A stretch of DNA of 64,000 nucleotides from Faecousia sp. (GCA_045659925.1 JAZRCV010000042.1:4137-68136); one strand, 5' to 3'. Shown: positions 6,841 to 26,890, numbered from the stretch's first letter. Made by a program: numbers and translations. The notes: a model not told the origin generated them from the letters alone.

Positions 6841-7455
6841 TTGGACGAAAAGCGACTGATTCAGCAAGCTGCCTCCGGAGATATGGCAGCTTTTGAAAAG
6901 CTGGTTCTGCGCTATCAGACCCAGGTGTACAGCCTTGCCTACCGCATGGTGGGCAACGAGGCAGACGCACAGGATCTGGCGCAGGAAGCCTTTGTGCGCT
7001 CCTGGCGTGCCCTTGGCTCCTTCCAGTTCTCTTCCCAGTTTTCCACCTGGCTGTATCGCCTGACCTCCAACATCTGCATTGACTTTCTCCGGGCGCAAAA
7101 GAAGAGAACTCATGTATCTCTCACTGTGCTGCAGGATGACGCGCAGCAGCAATGGGATATGCCGGATCATAGACCCCTTCCGGAGGAACAGATGATGGCG
7201 GCAGAAGAGCATGAAGCCCTTGCCAATGCCATTGCCTCTTTGGATCCGGAATACCGTCAGGTATTGATCCTCCGCATTATCAACGATTGCAGCTATCAGC
7301 AGATCAGCGAAATCATGGGCATTCGGGAAGGCACTGTGAAATCCCGCCTCTCCCGTGCAAGAGAACAACTCCGGAAAAAGCTCGCCCAAAGCGGGAACTT
7401 TTTCGCCGTATCATCGTCTAACTCTACGAAAGGAGGGCGATCTGATGTGCAGTGA
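6841..7455 (+). CDS. ECF-type RNA polymerase sigma factor
   Basis: 204 aa with region 2 (FSTWLYRLTSNICIDFLRAQKK) and a region 4 HTH (YRQVLILRIINDCSYQQISEIMGIREGTVKSRLSRAREQL). TTG start 4 nt after the dusB stop. Confidence 0.8.
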   Translation: MDEKRLIQQAASGDMAAFEKLVLRYQTQVYSLAYRMVGNEADAQDLAQEAFVRSWRALGSFQFSSQFSTWLYRLTSNICIDFLRAQKKRTHVSLTVLQDDAQQQWDMPDHRPLPEEQMMAAEEHEALANAIASLDPEYRQVLILRIINDCSYQQISEIMGIREGTVKSRLSRAREQLRKKLAQSGNFFAVSSSNSTKGGRSDVQ

Positions 7456-8194
7456 GCAAATGAATATCCTGATTACCGGTCATCTGGACGGCACCAACAC
7501 ACCAAAGCAGGAAGCACTCCTTGAAGAGCACCTTTGCAAATGCGATGCATGCCGCCGCCTTTTGAATGAATATAAGACCATTGACGCCGAGCTTTCCGAA
7601 ATGACCCTTACGCCCCCTGCTGGATTCTCCGCCTCCGTTATGAATGCCATTTCTCAGGAGGCTCCCCTTCAAAAAAAGACAAAAAAGCACCCATTCCGCT
7701 ATGGGACCATGATCGCTGCCGCTGCGGCTGTGCTGGTGCTGGCTGTGAGTGCAGGCCATATCTCCATGCCAAAGGGCGGTTCTGCCGCCATCTACTCAAT
7801 GTCAGATTCAGAAGCTGCAGCAGAAGAGCAGCATGCCCAAGTCGCTGACATGGTTATCCCTGAATCCGAATCATATTCTCTGACCACCGATAGCAAGCTG
7901 GAAACCAAGACAGCATCCGGCTCCATTGCCCGCCTTCCCGCAAATGTGGACTGCGCCGCACTGGCAAACACAGAAGAATGCTATGTGGGTCTGCTGTATG
8001 CCGACAGCGCCCCGGAGGCATTGAAGCACGCCTCTTCCCTGCCCTTGGATGGCGGCACCATGTATACCATTTCTCAAGAAACTCTGAACGAACTGAAGGC
8101 GCAGTATCCGGAGCTTCAAATTTATGCTCCTGAGGATGCTGCACCGGAGGAGAGCAAGGACGCATACCTCATCTTAGTGAACGATCCCGCATAA
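7445..8194 (+). CDS. Anti-sigma factor (zf-HC2 type, single-pass membrane)
   Basis: N-terminal H-x3-C-x2-C motif (EEHLCKCDACRRLL) and a TM segment (YGTMIAAAAAVLVLAVSAG). Overlaps the sigma gene by 11 nt. Confidence 0.75.
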   Translation: MCSEQMNILITGHLDGTNTPKQEALLEEHLCKCDACRRLLNEYKTIDAELSEMTLTPPAGFSASVMNAISQEAPLQKKTKKHPFRYGTMIAAAAAVLVLAVSAGHISMPKGGSAAIYSMSDSEAAAEEQHAQVADMVIPESESYSLTTDSKLETKTASGSIARLPANVDCAALANTEECYVGLLYADSAPEALKHASSLPLDGGTMYTISQETLNELKAQYPELQIYAPEDAAPEESKDAYLILVNDPA

Positions 8195-14147: not shown

Positions 14148-15566
14148 GTGGTATTCAGTTCTCTGGAGTTTATTTTCATCTTCCTACCCATCTTCCTGGC
14201 AATCTATTACTGGCTTCCGTCCCGTCTTCGGAATGCCAGCATCCTGCTGGGCAGCCTGATTTTCTATATTTATGGTTCCTGGCAGAACCCCTTCTACATT
14301 GCCCTTATGCTGCTGTCGATTATTCTGAACTGGATGCTGGCAATGTATGTTGCACCCACCCATAAGGATGGCCAAGGCAACAAGACGCTCCTGATCGTTG
14401 GCATCGTATATCATCTGGGACTTCTGTTCCTCTATAAATACTGCAACTTCCTGTTCACCAGCATCAATTCTCTGCTGGGCTTTGAAGCCGGCAAGGGCCT
14501 GCCCCAGATCACCTGGGCACTTCCCTTGGGCATCAGTTTCTATACCTTCATGCATCTGGCATATCTGATCGATGTATACCGTGGCAATATCAAGCCTGAA
14601 GCATCCCTCTTCCGCTATGCCACCTTTGCCACCTTCTTCCCCAAGCTCACCTCCGGCCCCATCACCACTTATCAGGAGCTGGACGGCCCCCTGTCCCGCC
14701 GCCGCATTGGAATGAAGCGTCTGGACAACGGCCTGCGTGATTTCATCATCGGCCTTGGCCTGAAGGTGCTGCTGGCCAACCAGATCGGCGGTCTGTGGAG
14801 TCAGCTTGGTATGATCGGCTACGAAAGCATTTCCACCCCCCTTGCATGGATGGGTTCTCTGGCCTACACCCTGCAGCTTTATTTCGACTTCTACGGCTAC
14901 AGCCTGATGGCCATCGGTGTTGGTAAGATGCTGGGCTTCCGTTTGCCGGATAACTTCCACCATCCCTACATTGCCCGCACCATGACAGACTTCTGGCGCC
15001 GCTGGCACATGACCCTGGGCGCCTGGTTCCGTAATTATCTCTACATTCCCCTTGGCGGCAACCGCTGCAGCCGCAACCGCCACACCCTGAACCTGTTGAT
15101 CGTGTGGCTGGCCACCGGCCTGTGGCACGGCGCAAGCTGGAACTTTGTGCTCTGGGGCCTGTTCCTGTTCGCCATTATCTATATCGAAAAGAACTATACC
15201 ATGAATGCCCTCACCGGCGATTCCACCCTGTCCCACATTGGTTCTCATGTTTACATGATCGTGCTGATCATGGTTCAGTGGACCATTTTCGCGGTTACGG
15301 ATCTTTCTCAGCTTGGTGTGTATCTTGGCAGACTCTTTGGTATCGGCGGCAATGTGATGGATCCCATGGACTTTACCCGCTATCTTGATACCTACGGCTG
15401 GAAGATGGCAATCGGCATTTTGTTTACCACTCCCCTGCCCCGCAAGCTCTTCAAGCCGATTCGCAACAGCTTCCTTGGCACACTGATCCTGTTTGCCATC
15501 TTTGTGGCAGCTATTTACTGCGTATCCATCGGTTCTAACGACCCGTTCATGTACTTCAATTTCTAA
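14148..15566 (+). CDS. MBOAT-family membrane O-acyltransferase (AlgI/PatA/DltB-like)
   Basis: 472-aa polytopic protein. DFWRRWHMTLGAWFRNYLYIPLGG and GLWHGASWNF contain the MBOAT conserved His. GTG start behind RBS aaaggag. Confidence 0.85.
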   Translation: MVFSSLEFIFIFLPIFLAIYYWLPSRLRNASILLGSLIFYIYGSWQNPFYIALMLLSIILNWMLAMYVAPTHKDGQGNKTLLIVGIVYHLGLLFLYKYCNFLFTSINSLLGFEAGKGLPQITWALPLGISFYTFMHLAYLIDVYRGNIKPEASLFRYATFATFFPKLTSGPITTYQELDGPLSRRRIGMKRLDNGLRDFIIGLGLKVLLANQIGGLWSQLGMIGYESISTPLAWMGSLAYTLQLYFDFYGYSLMAIGVGKMLGFRLPDNFHHPYIARTMTDFWRRWHMTLGAWFRNYLYIPLGGNRCSRNRHTLNLLIVWLATGLWHGASWNFVLWGLFLFAIIYIEKNYTMNALTGDSTLSHIGSHVYMIVLIMVQWTIFAVTDLSQLGVYLGRLFGIGGNVMDPMDFTRYLDTYGWKMAIGILFTTPLPRKLFKPIRNSFLGTLILFAIFVAAIYCVSIGSNDPFMYFNF

Positions 15567-15578
15567 GGAGGCGTCAAA

Positions 15579-16601
15579 ATGAGTTCCTTTTTCAAAAAAG
15601 AGCGCCTGCTTCTTTCGCTGATCGTTGTTTTCGGCATTTTCTTTGGTATCTTTGGCACAATCCTGAAGCATACCGCCTACGCAAATCAGAATATCGAAGC
15701 ACCCGGCATTGCTTTTGGCTTCCTTGCCATGCATGACGGCATTCTCACCGGCGACAGCACCCCTGTCTCCATGCAGCAGCCCCCGGCAGCGGAACCGGAA
15801 CCCGAACCGGAGCCCATTCCGGAACCGGAGCCGGATCCGGATACAACGCCCGAACCTGCCCCTGCTCCCGAACCTGAACCGGAACCCGAGCCTGAAGCTG
15901 CATTCCAGACTGTGCACGAGAGCTACTTCTCCGATGCTCTGTTCATCGGTGACTCCAGAACTGACGGTCTGCGGCTGTATGCCCCCTTTGACGGTGCGGA
16001 TTACTTCTGCAACACCGGCATGTCCGTCCTCAAGTGTTTGGATACCTCTGTGGAATCCGTGGAAGGTGTTGGCTCTGTAACCTTAGAGCAGCTGCTTGAT
16101 CAGCGGGATTACGGCAAGGTCTACATCAGCCTCGGCATCAACGATGTGGGCTATGATCATGAGTACCTTGTGGATTATTACGAGGAGATCTACGATCTGG
16201 TAAGAGAAAAAGAGCCGAACGCCCTTATATACATCATGTCCAGCATGCACGTTGCCAAAGGCCGCGCCATCAATGAGCCCATGTTCGAAAGTGAGAATGT
16301 GGATCACCTGAACGAGCTCTTCGGTGCACTGGCTGACGGTGTGCACAGCTTCTACATTGATGTCAACGAAGCATTCGACGATGAAGAGGGCTACCTCGTT
16401 TCCGATTACACCGGCGACAATGTCCATCTCTACGCAAAATACTATGAGATGTGGGATGAATGGCTGTGCGAGAACGCTGTGGTCGTGCCCGGCATGGCCA
16501 ACCCCGGCACCGAACCGGAGCCGGAGCCGGAACCTGAGCCTGAACCTGAATCCGAGCCTGAATCCGACCCCTCTGAGGACGAGGAACCCCAGGAAACCTG
16601 A
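15579..16601 (+). CDS. Membrane-anchored SGNH/GDSL-family esterase/acyltransferase (PatB/AlgJ-like partner of the MBOAT)
   Basis: N-terminal TM (LLLSLIVVFGIFFGIFGTIL), SGNH block I (LFIGDSRTDG) and block V (GDNVHLY). The catalytic domain is bracketed by Pro-Glu low-complexity linkers. Confidence 0.75.
   Translation: MSSFFKKERLLLSLIVVFGIFFGIFGTILKHTAYANQNIEAPGIAFGFLAMHDGILTGDSTPVSMQQPPAAEPEPEPEPIPEPEPDPDTTPEPAPAPEPEPEPEPEAAFQTVHESYFSDALFIGDSRTDGLRLYAPFDGADYFCNTGMSVLKCLDTSVESVEGVGSVTLEQLLDQRDYGKVYISLGINDVGYDHEYLVDYYEEIYDLVREKEPNALIYIMSSMHVAKGRAINEPMFESENVDHLNELFGALADGVHSFYIDVNEAFDDEEGYLVSDYTGDNVHLYAKYYEMWDEWLCENAVVVPGMANPGTEPEPEPEPEPEPESEPESDPSEDEEPQET
15780..15899 (+). repeat. In-frame degenerate hexanucleotide (gaaccg/gagccg) tandem repeat encoding a (PE)n linker
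   Basis: Translates as PPAAEPEPEPEPIPEPEPDPDTTPEPAPAPEPEPEPEPEA. Confidence 0.9.
16503..16598 (+). repeat. Second in-frame (PE)n/(SE)n coding tandem repeat at the C-terminus of the SGNH protein
   Basis: Translates as PGTEPEPEPEPEPEPESEPESDPSEDEEPQET. Confidence 0.9.
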
Positions 16602-21462: not shown

Positions 21463-21642
21463 GGTTGTCCTCCTGCTGAAAATACGAATATTGGTAAAAT
21501 TATATCACATCTTTTTCATCACGGCAACGAAAAGTTACTTGAACTGAATAATCCCAGAGATTGGGATTGCGCCGGAGCAAAAAAACTGATAAAATATGAT
21601 AATATAAAAAAGTGAGATCCCTTTCCCACAATCACAACAGAA

Positions 21643-21670
21643 GTTGGAACTTTCTTCCAACCATTTCGTC
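21643..21670 (+). promoter_or_regulatory. ECF-type promoter candidate (GGAAC-N16-CGTC) overlapping a 7-bp inverted repeat
   Basis: GGAAC at 21646-21650, exactly 16 nt of spacer, then CGTC at 21667-21670, about 35 nt upstream of the ATG of the sigma-fusion gene. The inverted repeat GTTGGAA/TTCCAAC spans 21643-21661. Confidence 0.5.
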
Positions 21671-21705
21671 AAATATACGATCATATATGACAGGAGGGGT
21701 TGACC

Positions 21706-24492
21706 ATGGATCAAAGACAATGGATCATCCGCGCTCTGGATGGTGATTACACCGCCAAAGCGCATCTGTTTGAAGTGAATATCGAACCCATTTACTATCT
21801 GTGCTGGAAGCTTACCGGAAGCGCCTCCCAGGCGGGAGAGCTGACCCGACGCACCTTTGCCCGCGCCTTTTCTCAGCTGACGCAGCTTCGCCCGGACGCC
21901 AGCTTTGACCGATGGGTCACTGCCATTGCTGTAAATCTCTGCCGCCAGTCGCTAAAGAAAAGCCAGAGCTGGCTGTTTACCACGAATGAACGGGAAATGG
22001 CCCTGCTGCGGGATACCTATGTGGCTGGGGAAGAATGCCTGCCGGAAAGCTGCCTGACGGAACCGGAGAAGCGTTCTCTGGCCCTTCGTACCATCAGTCT
22101 TCTGCCGCCGGAACAGCGCATCTGCATGATCCTGCGATATGTGGCCCATCTCAAGCCCCATCAGATTGCAAAGCTTATGGATGTGGATGAGATCACCGTG
22201 CTTGGCCGTCTCAACAGTGGGCGGCGAGCCCTGCTCACCACACTTCAGGATCCCCAGCCCAAGGCTCTGCTGACAGAGCTCTTTGCTCAGGAAGCCGCTG
22301 CCCTGCCGGTGCCGGAGCTGCTGCGGGAAAGCTGCATGCAGATGGTGCTGAATGCCCGTCCGGAGCCAGTCGCCCCCGAAGAGGAAGCAGCGGAAGATGA
22401 GGATGAACCGGAGCAGGAACAGGCCGGTTTCTTCGCAAATCTCTTTGCCAATCTGTCGAAAAAGCAGAAATATCTTCTGCTTGGCTGCGGCGGCCTTGCC
22501 GTGATCCTGATCGTCCTGATTCTGGCGCTGATGCTTCGTGGCTGCAGCCCGGAGGATGCGCCTGTGGTACTTCCGGAACCGGAGGATGCACCCGTTGAGG
22601 AAGTGGATGAAGATCTGGAATCTGCCGCACTTCTGGAAGAATACGGCGTTGAAGTCCTGCTGACTTATTCCCGCCGGGAAGCCCAGGAGCTTATGGACGC
22701 CTGGCAGAGCATCCTGCCGGAATATGTCGCCAGCGGCAATGCCGAAGATCTTGCCCTGCAAATTGAGACTGCCAATGACGAGGTCACAGAAGTGCGCCTC
22801 CGTCTGGAACAGGCGGAACTTGATATTACCCGGCTTCGTGAGCTGGGTGTTGGCGTGGAACCGGAGCTGCACCGTGCTTTGAATGCCATCCGGGAAAGCT
22901 ATCAGCTCGCCTGCTATGAGGGCGTTCCCCTGTTTGATCCCACGCCCCGGGCAGACCAGTCCGCCGCTGCCTATTCTGAGAACTACCGCTATGAGCTGCT
23001 GGACGACAACGGCGATGGCAGAGCGGAAGCGCTGTCCATCACCCGCACCGGTGCAAACTTCGACCCGGAGGCCGGCATATTCCGTCCCTATGGCGAAAGT
23101 CTCAGCGAAACCCTTGGTCTGCGCCGAGACGATGCCCAAGTATTGTTCGGCGAAGGCGGCTATGAAGGTGAAGGGGTAGACTTCTACTCCATGAGCAAAA
23201 CCGGCGTCACCGCCGATGATGCGCCCATTACGGTTTCCGCCATCATGGAAGCCCGCGCAGAAATGGATGCCGCACGCCAGCGTGTTACCGCCCTGACCTT
23301 CACGGTGGAAGGCTGCTTTGCGCAGCTGCTGCCGGAGCTGCAGCTGCCGGACACTGCCATTTCCCTCAACCAGCTCAATCGCAAGCTGCAGGGCACGGAT
23401 GGTCACATCGGCCTTCTTCCCGGAGATGTCTTCGCACCCCTTCATCTGCGCACTGACGATGATTTTCTGGTTTACTACAGCGGCGCTACCCGCTATCTCT
23501 TCAGTGCAAGCGATATGGACAGCCCCGTAAGCAATATTGAGGTTCTGGATCTCTCTGACTGCCGCCTTTGGGACGCCAAAGCTCTGGAATTCCGTCAGGA
23601 TGGCTTTGACTTGGAAAAGCTGCTGGGACTTGACCGTTATACCGCCTACAGCGATTACGGCATCCGCTCCTATTCCGGCGAGAATTTTGCCGGATCTGCA
23701 CTTGGTCTTTGGGAATCCAACGGCACCATCCGCACCGTGCATAATTCCAGCGATCCCAGAGCCCTGTGGGGAATCTCTCTGGGAGACAGCCGTGAAGACA
23801 TTGAAGCAAAAGTGGAGTCCGTGGAAGGCTACTGCTGCCAGGCCGATGATACCTCCGCCCGGTATGTGCTGCCGAACAAGCGGGAGCTTGCTGTCACCTA
23901 TGAAGGCAGCAGTGCAAAAACACTGCAGCTGGAAGATCACAGCCACCAGGCAGACTATAAAGCACCCGAGCCCCTGAAGAAGCCTGCGGAAGAACTGTTC
24001 CGTGAATTCCTGGAAGGGCTTTCCGATGTGAAAGCCTCCTGGTACGGCGACCTCACCCATGATCAGACCGGTGATCTTCTGGTATGCCGTCCCAGCGGTA
24101 CGGACTGTCTGATTCAGCTTTATGTCATCAAAGATGACGCCGTCAATGAAACGCCGATCTACAGCATGAGCCTTAGCGCCTCGGCTGGTGTAGATTATTA
24201 TATCTATTCCCACGAAAGCGGCCCCTGCCTGCTGGCACACACTGCCACCGAAACGGTTACCGAACAAAAAATCAGCTGGAAGCTCTTCAGCATCAATGCC
24301 GCCGGCGGCGAAGTGGTTCTGGATCAGAATGAAGCCAGTCTGAATCTGCTCGAAATGTTCCTGGGCGATGAAGACGCCTACGACACCGTGAAGAAAGAAG
24401 CCGCTTCCTACTGCGCCGAAGGCAAGTACCTGTGCGGCACCCAGAGCGGCAAGATTGATTACTCCGATATGACCGCAAACTTTGGAGAATAA
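21706..24492 (+). CDS. ECF sigma factor fused to a transmembrane helix and a large (~650 aa) extracytoplasmic domain of unknown function
   Basis: Region 2 (FDRWVTAIAVNLCRQSLKK), region 4 HTH (LPPEQRICMILRYVAHLKPHQIAKLMDVDEITVLGRLNSGRRAL), an acidic linker, a TM helix (YLLLGCGGLAVILIVLILALML) and then about 650 aa with no motif I recognise. ATG at 21706 lies 8 nt after AGGAGG. The TTG at 21700 is too close to the RBS. Confidence 0.75.
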   Translation: MDQRQWIIRALDGDYTAKAHLFEVNIEPIYYLCWKLTGSASQAGELTRRTFARAFSQLTQLRPDASFDRWVTAIAVNLCRQSLKKSQSWLFTTNEREMALLRDTYVAGEECLPESCLTEPEKRSLALRTISLLPPEQRICMILRYVAHLKPHQIAKLMDVDEITVLGRLNSGRRALLTTLQDPQPKALLTELFAQEAAALPVPELLRESCMQMVLNARPEPVAPEEEAAEDEDEPEQEQAGFFANLFANLSKKQKYLLLGCGGLAVILIVLILALMLRGCSPEDAPVVLPEPEDAPVEEVDEDLESAALLEEYGVEVLLTYSRREAQELMDAWQSILPEYVASGNAEDLALQIETANDEVTEVRLRLEQAELDITRLRELGVGVEPELHRALNAIRESYQLACYEGVPLFDPTPRADQSAAAYSENYRYELLDDNGDGRAEALSITRTGANFDPEAGIFRPYGESLSETLGLRRDDAQVLFGEGGYEGEGVDFYSMSKTGVTADDAPITVSAIMEARAEMDAARQRVTALTFTVEGCFAQLLPELQLPDTAISLNQLNRKLQGTDGHIGLLPGDVFAPLHLRTDDDFLVYYSGATRYLFSASDMDSPVSNIEVLDLSDCRLWDAKALEFRQDGFDLEKLLGLDRYTAYSDYGIRSYSGENFAGSALGLWESNGTIRTVHNSSDPRALWGISLGDSREDIEAKVESVEGYCCQADDTSARYVLPNKRELAVTYEGSSAKTLQLEDHSHQADYKAPEPLKKPAEELFREFLEGLSDVKASWYGDLTHDQTGDLLVCRPSGTDCLIQLYVIKDDAVNETPIYSMSLSASAGVDYYIYSHESGPCLLAHTATETVTEQKISWKLFSINAAGGEVVLDQNEASLNLLEMFLGDEDAYDTVKKEAASYCAEGKYLCGTQSGKIDYSDMTANFGE

Positions 24493-24521
24493 ACCATAAA
24501 ACGAAAGGAGAAATCGTCGTA

Positions 24522-25010
24522 ATGTATCAACCCAATGACAGTTTAATTTCTGTGGAAACTGACCTTCCCATGCGCTGGTTCCGTTTCCTGACCCGGTACG
24601 GCCTCTGGATTGCCGGAGTTGGCATGATCCTTTTGGGCTGCTTCATCCTGCTGGGTCTTCAGCACCTCTTGGTGGGAATTGATCCTTCTGTGCTGTATAT
24701 GCAGAATCATGCTCTGCTCCTTGCCGACTTTGCTTACGGCCTCATCTGCATTGGCATCGGCATCTGCTGCATTATCACCCGCTTCCGCCTTGTTCAGCTC
24801 CGCAAGGGCTCTCCCATGCTGGTGTATATCACCCACGCAATGCTGGTGCTCACTCCCATGATCTACACTGTTTTCTCCGGAATCTGCATTGGCGAAAGCC
24901 TGTCCAGTCTCCTGAATCTGCAGTTAGCAGCCCAGTTTGCAGGTCTGATCGCAGGCATCGTGCTGCATGTGATCTACTTCAACAAGCGCAGCCATCTTTT
25001 TTACAATTGA
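24522..25010 (+). CDS. Small integral membrane protein, unknown function
   Basis: 162 aa with about four hydrophobic segments and RBS aaaggag. Starts 29 nt after the sigma-fusion gene, so it is probably co-transcribed. Confidence 0.55.
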   Translation: MYQPNDSLISVETDLPMRWFRFLTRYGLWIAGVGMILLGCFILLGLQHLLVGIDPSVLYMQNHALLLADFAYGLICIGIGICCIITRFRLVQLRKGSPMLVYITHAMLVLTPMIYTVFSGICIGESLSSLLNLQLAAQFAGLIAGIVLHVIYFNKRSHLFYN

Positions 25011-25012
25011 TC

Positions 25013-25058
25013 AAAAAAATGGTACCTGTACACCTTTGGGATGTACAGGTACTTTTTT
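25013..25058. terminator. Bidirectional rho-independent terminator
   Basis: A-tract, then stem ggtacctgtaca / tgtacaggtac, then T-tract. The T-tract overlaps the stop codon of the convergent rnj gene. Confidence 0.8.
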
Positions 25059-26715
25059 ATATTTCCATGATGACCGGAAGGATCATGGGGTTTCGTCTGG
25101 TATTCTTATAGAGGAAATTGGAAAGATCGCCCTTCATAGCCGCCTTTATGGTGGCCCAATCGCTGATGCCCTTATTCTGGCAAGTAAACAGCGATTCCAG
25201 ACAGATCATCCGCATGGCTTCGATCAGATCTTCATTTTCCTTCACATGGACAAAGCCGCGGGTGATAATATCCGGGCCTGTGATCAGCTCGCCATCCTCT
25301 GCGGAAAGAATGACGCACACCACGATCATGCCATCCTGGGCAAGATGTCTGCGGTCCCGGAGAACCACAGCGCCCACATCGCCCACGCCGGTGCCATCCA
25401 CAAAGACGCTGCCCGCCGTTACTGTATTGTCTGTGAGCTTGCAGGTCTTGGAGGTGCATTCGATGACACTGCCAAGATCCGCCACAATAATGCGCTTGGG
25501 GCTCATGCCCATCATTTTTGCAAGCTGGGCATGCTTCTGAAGGTGGCGCTGTTCGCCGTGGACGGGAATGAAATACTTGGGCTTTGTCAGGGCATGGACG
25601 ATCTTCAGCTCCTCCTGACAGGCATGGCCGGAGGCATGCAGGCCTTCCAGCTTGTCATGCACCACATCTGCACCCTTGCGATAGAGCTCATTGATGATGC
25701 GGGAAACCGCCTTCTCATTGCCGGGAATGGCAGAGGCGGAGATAATGATACGGTCGCCGGGCTGAATGTCGATCTGCTTGTGGCTTGAAAAGGCCATGCG
25801 GTACAGTGCCGACATATTTTCGCCCTGGGAGCCAGTGGATACCACCACAACCTTGTTCTTCGGAAGGCTTTTGATCTGCGCCAGATCAATCAGGGTATTG
25901 GCAGGAGGCTTGATATAGTCAAGCTCCGAGGCAACCTTCAGCATATTTTCCATGCTGCGCCCGGTAACGGCCACCTTGCGGCCATAGCGGTGAGCAGTCT
26001 GCAAAACAGACTGGAGGCGATGAAGGTTCGACGCAAAAGTGGTGATGATAATTCTCTGGTCGCAATTCTTAAACTGCCGATCCAGACTATCTGCCACACT
26101 CATTTCTGATGTAGTGTAGCCTTGCCGCTCCACATTGGTGGAGTCGCACAGCAGCGCCAGAACCCCTTCCTTTCCCAGCTCACCGAGACGGGTCAGATCC
26201 ATCATACCCTCACTGTCTGTGGGGTCAATTTTGAAGTCGCCGGTCATAACGACATTGCCCACCGGGGTTTTGATGGCAAAGGCCACTGCGTCCGCAATTG
26301 AATGGTTCACATGGATGAACTCCACGCTGAAGCAGCCCGCCTGCACCACATCGCCGGGTTTATGGGTAATCAGCTTCACCTTGTCCCGCAGCTTATGCTC
26401 CTCCAACTTCAGCTCAATGAGGCCGTTGGTGAGGCGGGTGCCATGGATCGGGGCGTTTACCGCCTGCAGCACATAGGGGATCGAGCCAATATGATCCTCA
26501 TGACCATGGGTAATGAAAAAGCCACGCATTTTCTTTGCGTTCTTGACAAGATAGGTAACATCGGGAATGACAAGGTCTACGCCGTACATATCCTCTTCCG
26601 GGAAGGCAATGCCGCAGTCGATCACAATCATGTCCTTGCCATATTCCAGCACTGTCATATTCTTGCCGATCTCATTCAAACCGCCAATGGGAATAATTTT
26701 CAGTTTTTCAGCCAA
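25057..26715 (-). CDS. rnj: Ribonuclease J
   Basis: Metallo-beta-lactamase/beta-CASP fold: IIPIGGLNEIGKNMTVLEY, HGHEDHIG, and HASGHACQEEL near the C-terminus. A TTG start at 26715 sits 11 nt after aaaggag. The ORF-track ATG at 26799 adds a non-conserved extension. Confidence 0.9.
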   Translation of the reverse strand: MAEKLKIIPIGGLNEIGKNMTVLEYGKDMIVIDCGIAFPEEDMYGVDLVIPDVTYLVKNAKKMRGFFITHGHEDHIGSIPYVLQAVNAPIHGTRLTNGLIELKLEEHKLRDKVKLITHKPGDVVQAGCFSVEFIHVNHSIADAVAFAIKTPVGNVVMTGDFKIDPTDSEGMMDLTRLGELGKEGVLALLCDSTNVERQGYTTSEMSVADSLDRQFKNCDQRIIITTFASNLHRLQSVLQTAHRYGRKVAVTGRSMENMLKVASELDYIKPPANTLIDLAQIKSLPKNKVVVVSTGSQGENMSALYRMAFSSHKQIDIQPGDRIIISASAIPGNEKAVSRIINELYRKGADVVHDKLEGLHASGHACQEELKIVHALTKPKYFIPVHGEQRHLQKHAQLAKMMGMSPKRIIVADLGSVIECTSKTCKLTDNTVTAGSVFVDGTGVGDVGAVVLRDRRHLAQDGMIVVCVILSAEDGELITGPDIITRGFVHVKENEDLIEAMRMICLESLFTCQNKGISDWATIKAAMKGDLSNFLYKNTRRNPMILPVIMEI

Positions 26716-26890
26716 ATAGATCACAACTCCTTTTCTGCGCACCCGCATTTTGGTGGCTGACCTCAGCGGGCAGAGATTCAATATACTGTGCAGGGCCAAA
26801 TGCCCTTACATTATGGATTTCCTGAAGTGCATGAGCGCACACTTGGTTTATTATAGCACAATCATATGGCAAAGTATACCTTTTTCTTTT

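Follow-up and report, generated by a model that had tools for sequence, protein, structure and literature searches.

How a sigma factor that is anchored in the membrane by its own polypeptide chain might be brought to a promoter is the question raised by a gene at 21706-24492 in a stretch of Faecousia sp. DNA of 64,000 nucleotides (GCA_045659925.1 JAZRCV010000042.1:4137-68136; the whole stretch is referred to here as the window, with positions counted from its first letter). The gene encodes a protein of 928 amino acids (aa) in which an extracytoplasmic function (ECF)-type sigma domain is joined to a transmembrane (TM) helix and a large C-terminal region, and an earlier note made from the sequence alone had described it as a single-polypeptide, membrane-spanning sigma factor lying behind its own promoter. 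We conclude, with a probability which we would put at roughly 55%, that this is a membrane-tethered one-polypeptide ECF sigma factor which, by analogy with IutY of Pseudomonas putida, would be released by regulated intramembrane proteolysis.

In principle an assembly or frameshift artefact could have fused the genes of a sigma factor and a membrane protein, and this we regard as virtually impossible. A search of 5.8 billion clustered proteins recovered 33 orthologues, independent of one another and drawn from assemblies in ENA, Logan and NCBI (921–959 aa, 100% query coverage, 47–90% identity), all of them full length and of the same architecture; the alignment runs through the whole of the linker, TM helix and ectodomain, and the identical protein is recorded on a public 68-kb NCBI contig; no point in favour of an artefact was found, and that reading is already refuted. 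The earlier note's single polypeptide therefore stands, and the frameshift which it had named as the observation to look for in orthologues is seen in none of the 33. The family is narrow (about 33 clusters at 90% identity) and comes entirely from uncultured gut and rumen Oscillospiraceae; the sole match among GTDB species genomes is an Oscillospiraceae metagenome-assembled genome. A metagenome scan added one orthologue (L012), the remaining matches being ordinary ECF sigma factors, and a search with the sigma domain only for close unfused relatives returned nothing but truncated fragments of the fusion family.

The longest open reading frame (ORF) runs from a TTG at 21700 to 24492 (930 aa), but the start is almost certainly the ATG at 21706, because AGGAGG lies 8 nt before it and the orthologues all begin M-D/E-Q-R-Q-W at this position. 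The features of the gene and its product are as follows:

21692-21697, + strand: Shine-Dalgarno sequence AGGAGG, invariant in alignment A3.
21706-24492, + strand: fusion gene (sigma domain, TM helix, ectodomain; 928 aa).
21766-21966, + strand: sigma region 2, aa 21-87, with the invariant R48-R49 (Pfam; alignments to SigW and Mycobacterium tuberculosis SigE).
22084-22233, + strand: sigma region 4, aa 127-176 (Pfam Sigma70_r4_2).
22270-22353, + strand: two helices following sigma-4, aa 189-216, a candidate intramolecular anti-sigma-like element (AlphaFold2; conservation).
22363-22470, + strand: acidic Pro/Glu-rich disordered cytoplasmic linker, aa 220-255, of variable length and ending GFFANL..KKQK (predicted local distance difference test, pLDDT, below 50).
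22471-22539, + strand: single TM helix, aa 256-278, followed by L-[RK]-[GS]-C (hydropathy; alignment).
22540-24489, + strand: extracytoplasmic region, aa 279-928, predicted as a 20-aa disordered linker and then several alpha/beta domains (AlphaFold2).
23971-24489, + strand: module D7, aa 756-928, with an FG-GAP-like DLTHDxxGDLLV loop (profile matches).

Four parts make up the protein: the sigma domain, of ECF type, a pair of conserved helices with an acidic disordered linker, one TM helix and about 650 further residues. Pfam places Sigma70_r2 at aa 21-87 (27.9 bits, cut-off 24) and Sigma70_r4_2 at aa 127-176 (28.7 bits, cut-off 25.7), with sigma regions 3 and 1 absent from the Pfam matches, and the NCBIfam model TIGR02937 for ECF sigma-70 factors scores 53.4 against a cut-off of 42.9. 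The sigma domain is accordingly of the ECF (group 4) kind, having sigma-2 and sigma-4 without regions 1.1 and 3. Its sequence matches in the PDB are ECF sigma factors only, the closest solved structure being that of Bacillus subtilis SigW (5wuq/5wur, E = 3e-15, 22% identity over aa 9-182), while the best named NCBIfam models are of the SigW, SigY and RpoE types, all far under their equivalog cut-offs. Invariant residues include T164, L166, G167, R168, L169, N170 and R173 of the sigma-4 recognition helix, and V202, P203, E204, S209, C210 and Q212 in the stretch following sigma-4, where the two helices (aa 189-216) have no Pfam match.

The TM segment (aa 256-278) has a Kyte-Doolittle 19-mer mean of 3.0 and no second TM candidate appears in the hydropathy profile. 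It is flanked by KKQK on the N-terminal side and by an acidic stretch on the C-terminal side, which places the sigma domain in the cytoplasm and the last 650 residues outside (N-in/C-out), and in the orthologue alignment the cytoplasmic half of the helix is Gly-rich (LLGCGGLA, LFGGGGLAL). The ectodomain (650 aa, aa 279-928) has no Pfam match, either as a whole or, at E values up to 10, when it was cut together with the linker into seven pieces. On all of this the earlier note had read the sequence correctly throughout: the complete two-domain ECF sigma factor in the first ~180 aa, the acidic linker (EEEAAEDEDEPEQEQ), the one TM helix at 22471-22539 and the ~650 outside residues without a known motif are all found, and the lack of a predicted TM helix that it had allowed for is not. 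Mean pairwise identity across the family is 0.82 for sigma-2 (aa 1-90) and 0.80 for sigma-4 (aa 126-180), compared with 0.66 for the helices after sigma-4, 0.56–0.65 for the ectodomain and 0.34 for the acidic linker, and from this we conclude that selection acts hardest on the sigma part of the protein.

We modelled the protein with AlphaFold2 from the 34-sequence family alignment, and made a second model of the ectodomain alone. Both models have mean pLDDT values of about 80–82 (81.9 for the full-length model) and agree with each other, with confident prediction of the sigma domain and most of the ectodomain (most ectodomain blocks 85–93). Helices are predicted at aa 189-199 and 204-216 (10-residue blocks of pLDDT 74–90 over aa 181-220), and the segments predicted to be disordered, aa 220-264 and 276-300, coincide exactly with the two linkers that flank the membrane helix. 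In a Foldseek comparison with the PDB, the modelled sigma domain superposes best on the compact, RsiW-bound SigW (5wur, template modelling (TM) score 0.66), compared with scores of 0.33–0.47 for ECF sigma factors bound to RNA polymerase (RNAP), which hints weakly at an inhibited resting conformation. Assignment of a fold to the ectodomain was tried with both models against the PDB and gave only beta-propeller-like noise (TM score ≤0.14, root-mean-square deviation 25–38 Å), and no internal repeats were found when the seven segments were compared with one another by hhalign (best probability 46%). A SEAL/SEA juxtamembrane domain with an autoproteolytic beta-hairpin, as in mechanotransducers of the RsgI type, was also considered on the strength of published work (10.1101/2023.06.27.546760) and found no support in Pfam or Foldseek: aa 296-385 have no Pfam match, and no SEAL/SEA domain is among the top 50 PDB matches of a Foldseek search with undivided models.

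Comparison with known systems leads us to liken the fusion protein to the IutY type of hybrid and to place it outside the SigW equivalog, ECF243 and ECF52/48/53, from which it is set apart by Pfam and NCBIfam matches, motifs and published descriptions. In IutY (ECF243), too, a cytosolic ECF sigma domain shares one polypeptide with a single TM segment and a domain outside the cytoplasm, in the periplasm, and the sigma domain is released by site-1 (Prc) and then site-2 (RseP) proteolysis (PMC5411451, PMC8999054). It is, however, a 374-aa FecI-like protein of a Gram-negative bacterium, with a FecR-type periplasmic domain and a role in TonB-dependent cell-surface signalling, whereas the fusion protein has 928 aa, a SigW-like sigma domain and an ectodomain unlike anything named, and belongs to Oscillospiraceae of the Gram-positive type. 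Neither FecR nor DUF4880 is found in the fusion protein by Pfam, and the neighbouring genes, lspA-rluD and that for RNase J, include no TonB-dependent transducer. ECF52 (SCO4117), ECF48 and ECF53 also share the order of sigma domain, cytoplasmic segment, TM helix or helices and extracytoplasmic extension (PMC5826349, PMC8999054); they are predicted to work by proteolytic release as IutY does (PMC8999054), and SCO4117, for which proteolytic activation has been proposed, regulates one of its own promoters (PMC5826349, PMC8999054). The earlier note's remark that TM-tethered sigma factors are barely characterised hence understates the literature, in which release of IutY has been shown (PMC5411451) and ECF48, ECF52 and ECF53 have been described (PMC8999054). 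The three groups differ from the fusion protein in carrying a zinc finger like that of zinc-binding anti-sigma (ZAS) proteins after sigma-4, to which ECF52, described as exclusive to Actinobacteria (PMC5826349), adds a Pro-rich region and a carbohydrate-binding domain. In the fusion protein an H-x3-C-x2-C motif is impossible, as His is absent from the 75 cytoplasmic residues 181-255 and C210 is their only Cys, Pfam finds neither a zinc finger nor a carbohydrate-binding module in the protein, and the host is a Firmicute and not an actinobacterium.

The sigma factor closest in sequence and structure is SigW of B. subtilis (ECF30), which also uses promoters of the AAC-N16-CGT form. Regulated intramembrane proteolysis, with a site-1 protease, RasP and Clp taking part, frees SigW from its anti-sigma factor RsiW, a separate protein which has a ZAS domain and is encoded at the +1 position; here the sigma domain is covalently joined to the TM helix, and the product of the +1 gene has four hydrophobic segments and does not match zf-HC2. 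Scores against the SigW equivalog models fall well under their cut-offs (PRK09641, 73.4 against 209; TIGR02948, 65 against 243), and we take the fusion sigma domain to be a relative of SigW and not a member of its family.

The region upstream of the fusion gene was compared between the window and 12 orthologous loci (13 loci in all), and contains two promoter-like elements, with start sites predicted at about 21602 and 21677:

21567-21595, + strand: P1, sigma-A-like promoter, TTGCGC with a 17-nt spacer and extended -10 TGa-TAAAAT (conservation).
21646-21670, + strand: P2, ECF-type promoter, GGAAC-N16-CGTC (exact in 11/13 loci).

The boxes of P2 are exact in 11 loci and their distance to the start codon is always 35–37 nt, while the spacers are unrelated between loci, and for these reasons we regard P2 as the phylogenetic footprint of an ECF-type promoter, with the extended -10 consensus CGTC-A/C-A/T-AT. 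GGAAC-N16-CGTC occurs twice in the window where 0.21 matches would be expected. The footprint bears out the site at 21646-21670 which the earlier note had picked out; of the inverted repeat which it saw over the -35 box, GTTGGAA (21643-21649) and TTCCAAC (21655-21661), the observation stands and the repeat does overlap P2, but it is peculiar to the window and is not conserved in the orthologous loci, whose spacers differ. The P1 pattern, TTGCnn-N17 with TGn-TAnnAT, is kept in 12/13 loci (alignment A3 shows no variation in TTGC and TG-TA-AAT), and since its -35 box matches the consensus at 3/6 positions it was missed by a generic promoter scanner. Many ECF sigma genes carry both a housekeeping-type and an ECF-type promoter. 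The conservation of P1 makes it improbable that the fusion gene is expressed from its own promoter only. The idea of an own promoter is therefore half right: the ECF-type promoter is conserved, but upstream of it lies a sigma-A-like promoter of the sort which the note itself had said would count against it. We put forward autoregulation of the fusion gene as a hypothesis.

P2 is missing from two orthologues, P0033 (L006, 1-110) and P0030 (L009, 9930-10000), and in L009 a GGAAC-N6-CGTC remnant is kept which looks like the product of a 10-bp deletion. Both of these loci are also without the small gene that follows the fusion gene elsewhere, though with n=2 the correlation may be due to chance.

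The ectodomain was compared as a profile with 1.84 billion representatives, and the distant partial relatives were scanned with Pfam and with a hidden Markov model of the last 173 residues. A single family representative scored below 1e-30, again showing the fusion family to be narrow. The C-terminal module D7 is more widely used. It stands alone in small lipoproteins of about 190–240 aa, whose lipoboxes are canonical, and larger proteins have tandem copies of it. BlaR1-type M56 sensor proteases carry it at their extracytoplasmic end (two copies in P0040, three in P0050 and one in P0058), and so do two other, unrelated sigma-TM fusions, P0039 (912 aa) and P0049 (669 aa), have the module. Relatives bearing D7 include P0040, P0050, P0058 and P0046-P0062. 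D7 is thus an unnamed extracytoplasmic domain family that has been attached repeatedly to membrane signal transducers in evolution, probably as a reusable sensor or binding domain, and merits its own definition; its presence on M56 proteases, other sigma-TM fusions and lipoproteins locates it on the extracellular side of signalling proteins, a distribution which supports a sensor role for the ectodomain. BlaR1 relies on proteolysis to link a signal from outside the cell to gene expression. The BlaR1/MecR1-type M56 proteins resemble the fusion protein in being membrane signal transducers, some of which share D7, but their cytoplasmic output is a zinc protease with a repressor as its target and not a sigma factor, and the fusion protein has no M56 domain.

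Taken with the architecture, these comparisons suggest how release might work. In the resting state the sigma domain would be held at the membrane, where the helices after sigma-4, the small partner protein encoded downstream, or both, may also mask it. On sensing its signal the ectodomain would be trimmed within the disordered outer linker, and a site-2 protease would then cut the Gly-rich TM helix. The freed sigma domain could bind core RNAP and fire promoters of the GGAAC-N16-CGTC type, including its own, giving positive feedback, with P1 providing a basal supply. The disordered linkers at both membrane faces, the Gly-rich cytoplasmic half of the TM helix and the strong selection on the sigma domain all fit this model.

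The same linker also lends itself to a different mechanism, in which the sigma domain would work while tethered, in the manner of ToxR or CadC: a flexible linker of 35–70 residues would allow RNAP to be recruited to nearby DNA, with an allosteric switch by the ectodomain or the partner and no proteolysis. Besides the length, disorder and variable length of the linker, this would account for our detecting no dedicated site-1 protease gene or autoproteolytic domain in the operon; the conserved membrane partner could gate activity, and the released IutY sigma domain is known to stay membrane-associated (PMC5411451). Set against this, IutY is the one characterised case of the architecture and needs cleavage by RseP (PMC5411451), and the Gly-rich N-terminal half of the TM helix is a helix-destabilising feature. 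Site-2 proteases favour features of this kind, and we know of no tethered sigma factor that has been shown to act without release. We consider action in the tethered state unlikely, and prefer release.

Several observations nevertheless weigh against the release of an active, autoregulating sigma factor. We infer cleavage, release and promoter use alike, and the fusion protein has no recognisable anti-sigma domain (no match in Pfam to zf-HC2, RsgI_N, FecR or RskA). AlphaFold2 models of ECF sigma factors are often compact, which makes the match to 5wur weak evidence for an inhibited state. Autoregulation must be dispensable in P0030 and P0033, which have no ECF promoter, and elsewhere P2 could be read by the conventional ECF sigma factor encoded at 6841. 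The sigma Pfam scores barely pass their cut-offs (28 bits, compared with 69–76 bits for this neighbouring conventional sigma factor), and region 2.2 is unusual. It reads E-L-T-R-R-T-F in the fusion family, with R48 and R49 invariant in 34/34 sequences, where SigW, M. tuberculosis SigE and the conventional sigma factor of the window have Q-E, several other ECF sigma factors that we fetched have Q-E or Q-D, and the ECF core-binding motif D-[LV]-x-Q-[ED]-x-F is not present in the fusion protein. In sigma-70 the corresponding Q406/E407 surface binds the beta-prime clamp helices. Core binding may therefore be altered by the invariant R-R pair, or the R-R surface may instead have been shaped for contact with another part of the same protein, for instance the helix with the invariant V202-P203-E204. 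Altered core binding would point to a protein acting either as a tethered decoy for the neighbouring zf-HC2 anti-sigma factor or as a sigma factor at the membrane that is never released, and we consider this doubtful, if worth keeping in mind. Were either true, it would represent a signalling logic new for Firmicutes, with a sensing module common to BlaR1-type receptors.

Two ECF sigma genes only are present in the window, that of the fusion protein and the conventional one at 6841-7455, whose product scores 75.9 bits for region 2 and 69 bits for region 4 (r4_2) and has 25% identity to the fusion sigma domain. The sigma gene overlaps the start (ATG 7445) of an anti-sigma gene at 7445-8194, the product of which matches zf-HC2 at E = 6e-4; the earlier note's conventional pair at 6841-8194 is thus confirmed, though this zf-HC2 match is under the Pfam cut-off. 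The second GGAAC-N16-CGTC of the window is found here, at 7394-7418, within the last codons of the conventional sigma gene and 27 nt before the anti-sigma ATG. Its counterpart in L004 (3941-3965) keeps the boxes while the spacer differs at 7/10 positions. The 7394 site may act as an internal promoter for the anti-sigma gene alone, and is a possible link between the two ECF systems, with the limits that it lies within coding sequence and that two genomes are compared. In L004 a block of dus, sigma and anti-sigma genes with the same motif lies directly upstream of the fusion gene, whereas in the window the pair is 14 kb from the fusion gene and it is absent from the fetched flanks of the other loci.

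This arrangement bears on the possibility that the sigma-like domain is itself a tethered decoy, following PhyR-type logic, which would set the conventional sigma factor (6841-7455) free by binding the zf-HC2 anti-sigma factor (7445-8194) or some other partner. The freed sigma factor would then read the GGAAC-N16-CGTC motifs before both the anti-sigma and the fusion genes, in keeping with the position of the 7394 site and its conserved boxes in L004, with the adjacency of dus, sigma, anti-sigma and fusion genes there, and with the R-R for Q-E/D replacement in all 34 members and their marginal Pfam scores. A decoy would not explain why conservation in the protein peaks in sigma-2, with the F-x-x-W-x-x-x-I-A-x-N of region 2.3/2.4, and in sigma-4, with its recognition helix, and the protein has no match to the Pfam PhyR sigma-like models. 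The 14-kb separation in the window and the lack of the pair from other fetched flanks speak against it too, as do the coding position of the 7394 site, the comparison of two genomes and the different extended -10 (position weight matrix (PWM) score below 14, compared with 30–50 for the fusion promoters). On balance a decoy seems improbable to us, and we continue to favour a sigma factor that is released.

The PWM, built from the 11 P2 promoters, was used to scan the window and the 12 orthologous loci, roughly 170 kb in all, and the only additional sites were 7394 and its L004 counterpart, one at L005 623-665, and a bare GGAAC-N16-CGTC at L005 8774 which is under the PWM threshold. The L005 623-665 site is the one further strong match, reading GGAAC-N16-CGTCAAATAGCT with the same extended -10 as the fusion promoters, and is unlikely to have arisen by chance in this amount of sequence. 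The site, which follows a terminator hairpin, is 4.3 kb upstream of that genome's fusion gene and faces through an antisense tRNA gene to an ABC transporter operon which has its own sigma-A promoter. We regard it as a candidate second member of the regulon. The promoter motif GGAAC-N16-CGTCAAAT is sharply defined, so that the regulon should be readable from any complete genome of the clade.

Downstream, the fusion gene is followed by one small gene and a terminator:

24522-25010, + strand: small operon partner, 162 aa, with four hydrophobic segments and no zinc ribbon (41% identity to the L002 copy; alignment A4, 9 copies).
25022-25052, both directions: intrinsic terminator closing the operon and the convergent RNase J gene (perfect 13-bp stem, A/T runs on both sides).

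The partner gene starts 29 nt after the fusion stop codon and has its own Shine-Dalgarno sequence, the RNase J gene being convergent on the minus strand at 25057-26799, and co-transcription with the fusion gene is predicted from the 29-nt gap and the shared terminator. A homologue follows the fusion gene in 9/11 loci in which a downstream gene was examined. The earlier note, which saw no separate anti-sigma gene here, had dismissed this as only a 162-aa membrane protein, but the protein is a conserved operon partner and not an incidental neighbour. Its family is as narrow as that of the fusion protein, with unnamed members, and it has no Pfam or NCBIfam match, zf-HC2 included. Most copies have an N-terminal CPxC...CxxC zinc ribbon; those of the window and L004 do not (it was either lost or never acquired) and keep the four hydrophobic segments and the motifs TRFRL..FRK and YFKKR.

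We see the partner as a candidate regulator, and it could go further and be the real anti-sigma factor or gatekeeper, by holding the sigma domain or shielding the TM helix from a site-2 protease, in which case the ectodomain would be structural, for example a cell-wall or surface anchor. The conserved position adjoining the fusion gene, the cytoplasmic zinc ribbon of most copies, the basic TRFRL..FRK and YFKKR motifs which face the acidic linker, and the joint absence of partner gene and ECF promoter from two loci are all consistent with such a role. However, the window and L004 copies do without the ribbon, two orthologues do without the gene altogether, and there is no likeness to any anti-sigma family in Pfam or NCBIfam, and we think it decidedly unlikely that the partner has taken over this function. 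It is in any case a variant of the release model which leaves the architecture unchanged.

No transmembrane route by which an outside signal can determine promoter choice is simpler than a one-polypeptide sigma/anti-sigma hybrid, and to our knowledge only IutY has been dissected experimentally among such hybrids. Our full-text literature search on tethered or fused sigma factors found no Firmicute case described. What is new here is a conserved Gram-positive version with no recognisable anti-sigma domain, a large new ectodomain, a small membrane partner and the R-R pair. It should be noted that the concept is established and the family small and uncultured, and that the practical impact will be limited until the ligand or regulon is known.

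Some further residues and neighbouring genes deserve mention. Four cysteines encoded within 21706-22335 are invariant in 34/34 family members: C33 in sigma-2.1, C79 in sigma-2.4, C111 in the linker that joins sigma-2 to sigma-4, and C210 in the helix following sigma-4. A split metal or redox site formed by these cytoplasmic residues is conceivable. Directly after the TM helix, at the outer membrane face, is the conserved L-[RK]-[GS]-C (22540-22548, aa 279-281; alignment A1), and disulphide dimerisation is one possibility for its near-invariant Cys. This Cys, with the nearby divergent lspA gene, prompted us to consider whether the N-terminal part of the protein is a 'giant signal peptide' cleaved by LspA to give a lipoprotein, which we rejected: a lipobox of the form [LVI][ASTVI][GAS]C is not present, position -2 is always Arg or Lys, and P0033 is without the Cys. 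In the window, as in at least six of the other 12 loci, a divergent lspA gene lies upstream of the fusion gene; the adjacency is not universal and is probably a coincidence. Further upstream in the window (14148-16598), a gene for an MBOAT acyltransferase is followed by one for a GDSL-type esterase with a Pro/Glu-rich acidic repeat (a Trypan_PARP-like match), probably a cell-envelope O-acylation module with no obvious tie to the sigma factor, and the same pair of MBOAT and partner genes is found upstream of rluD-lspA in L011.

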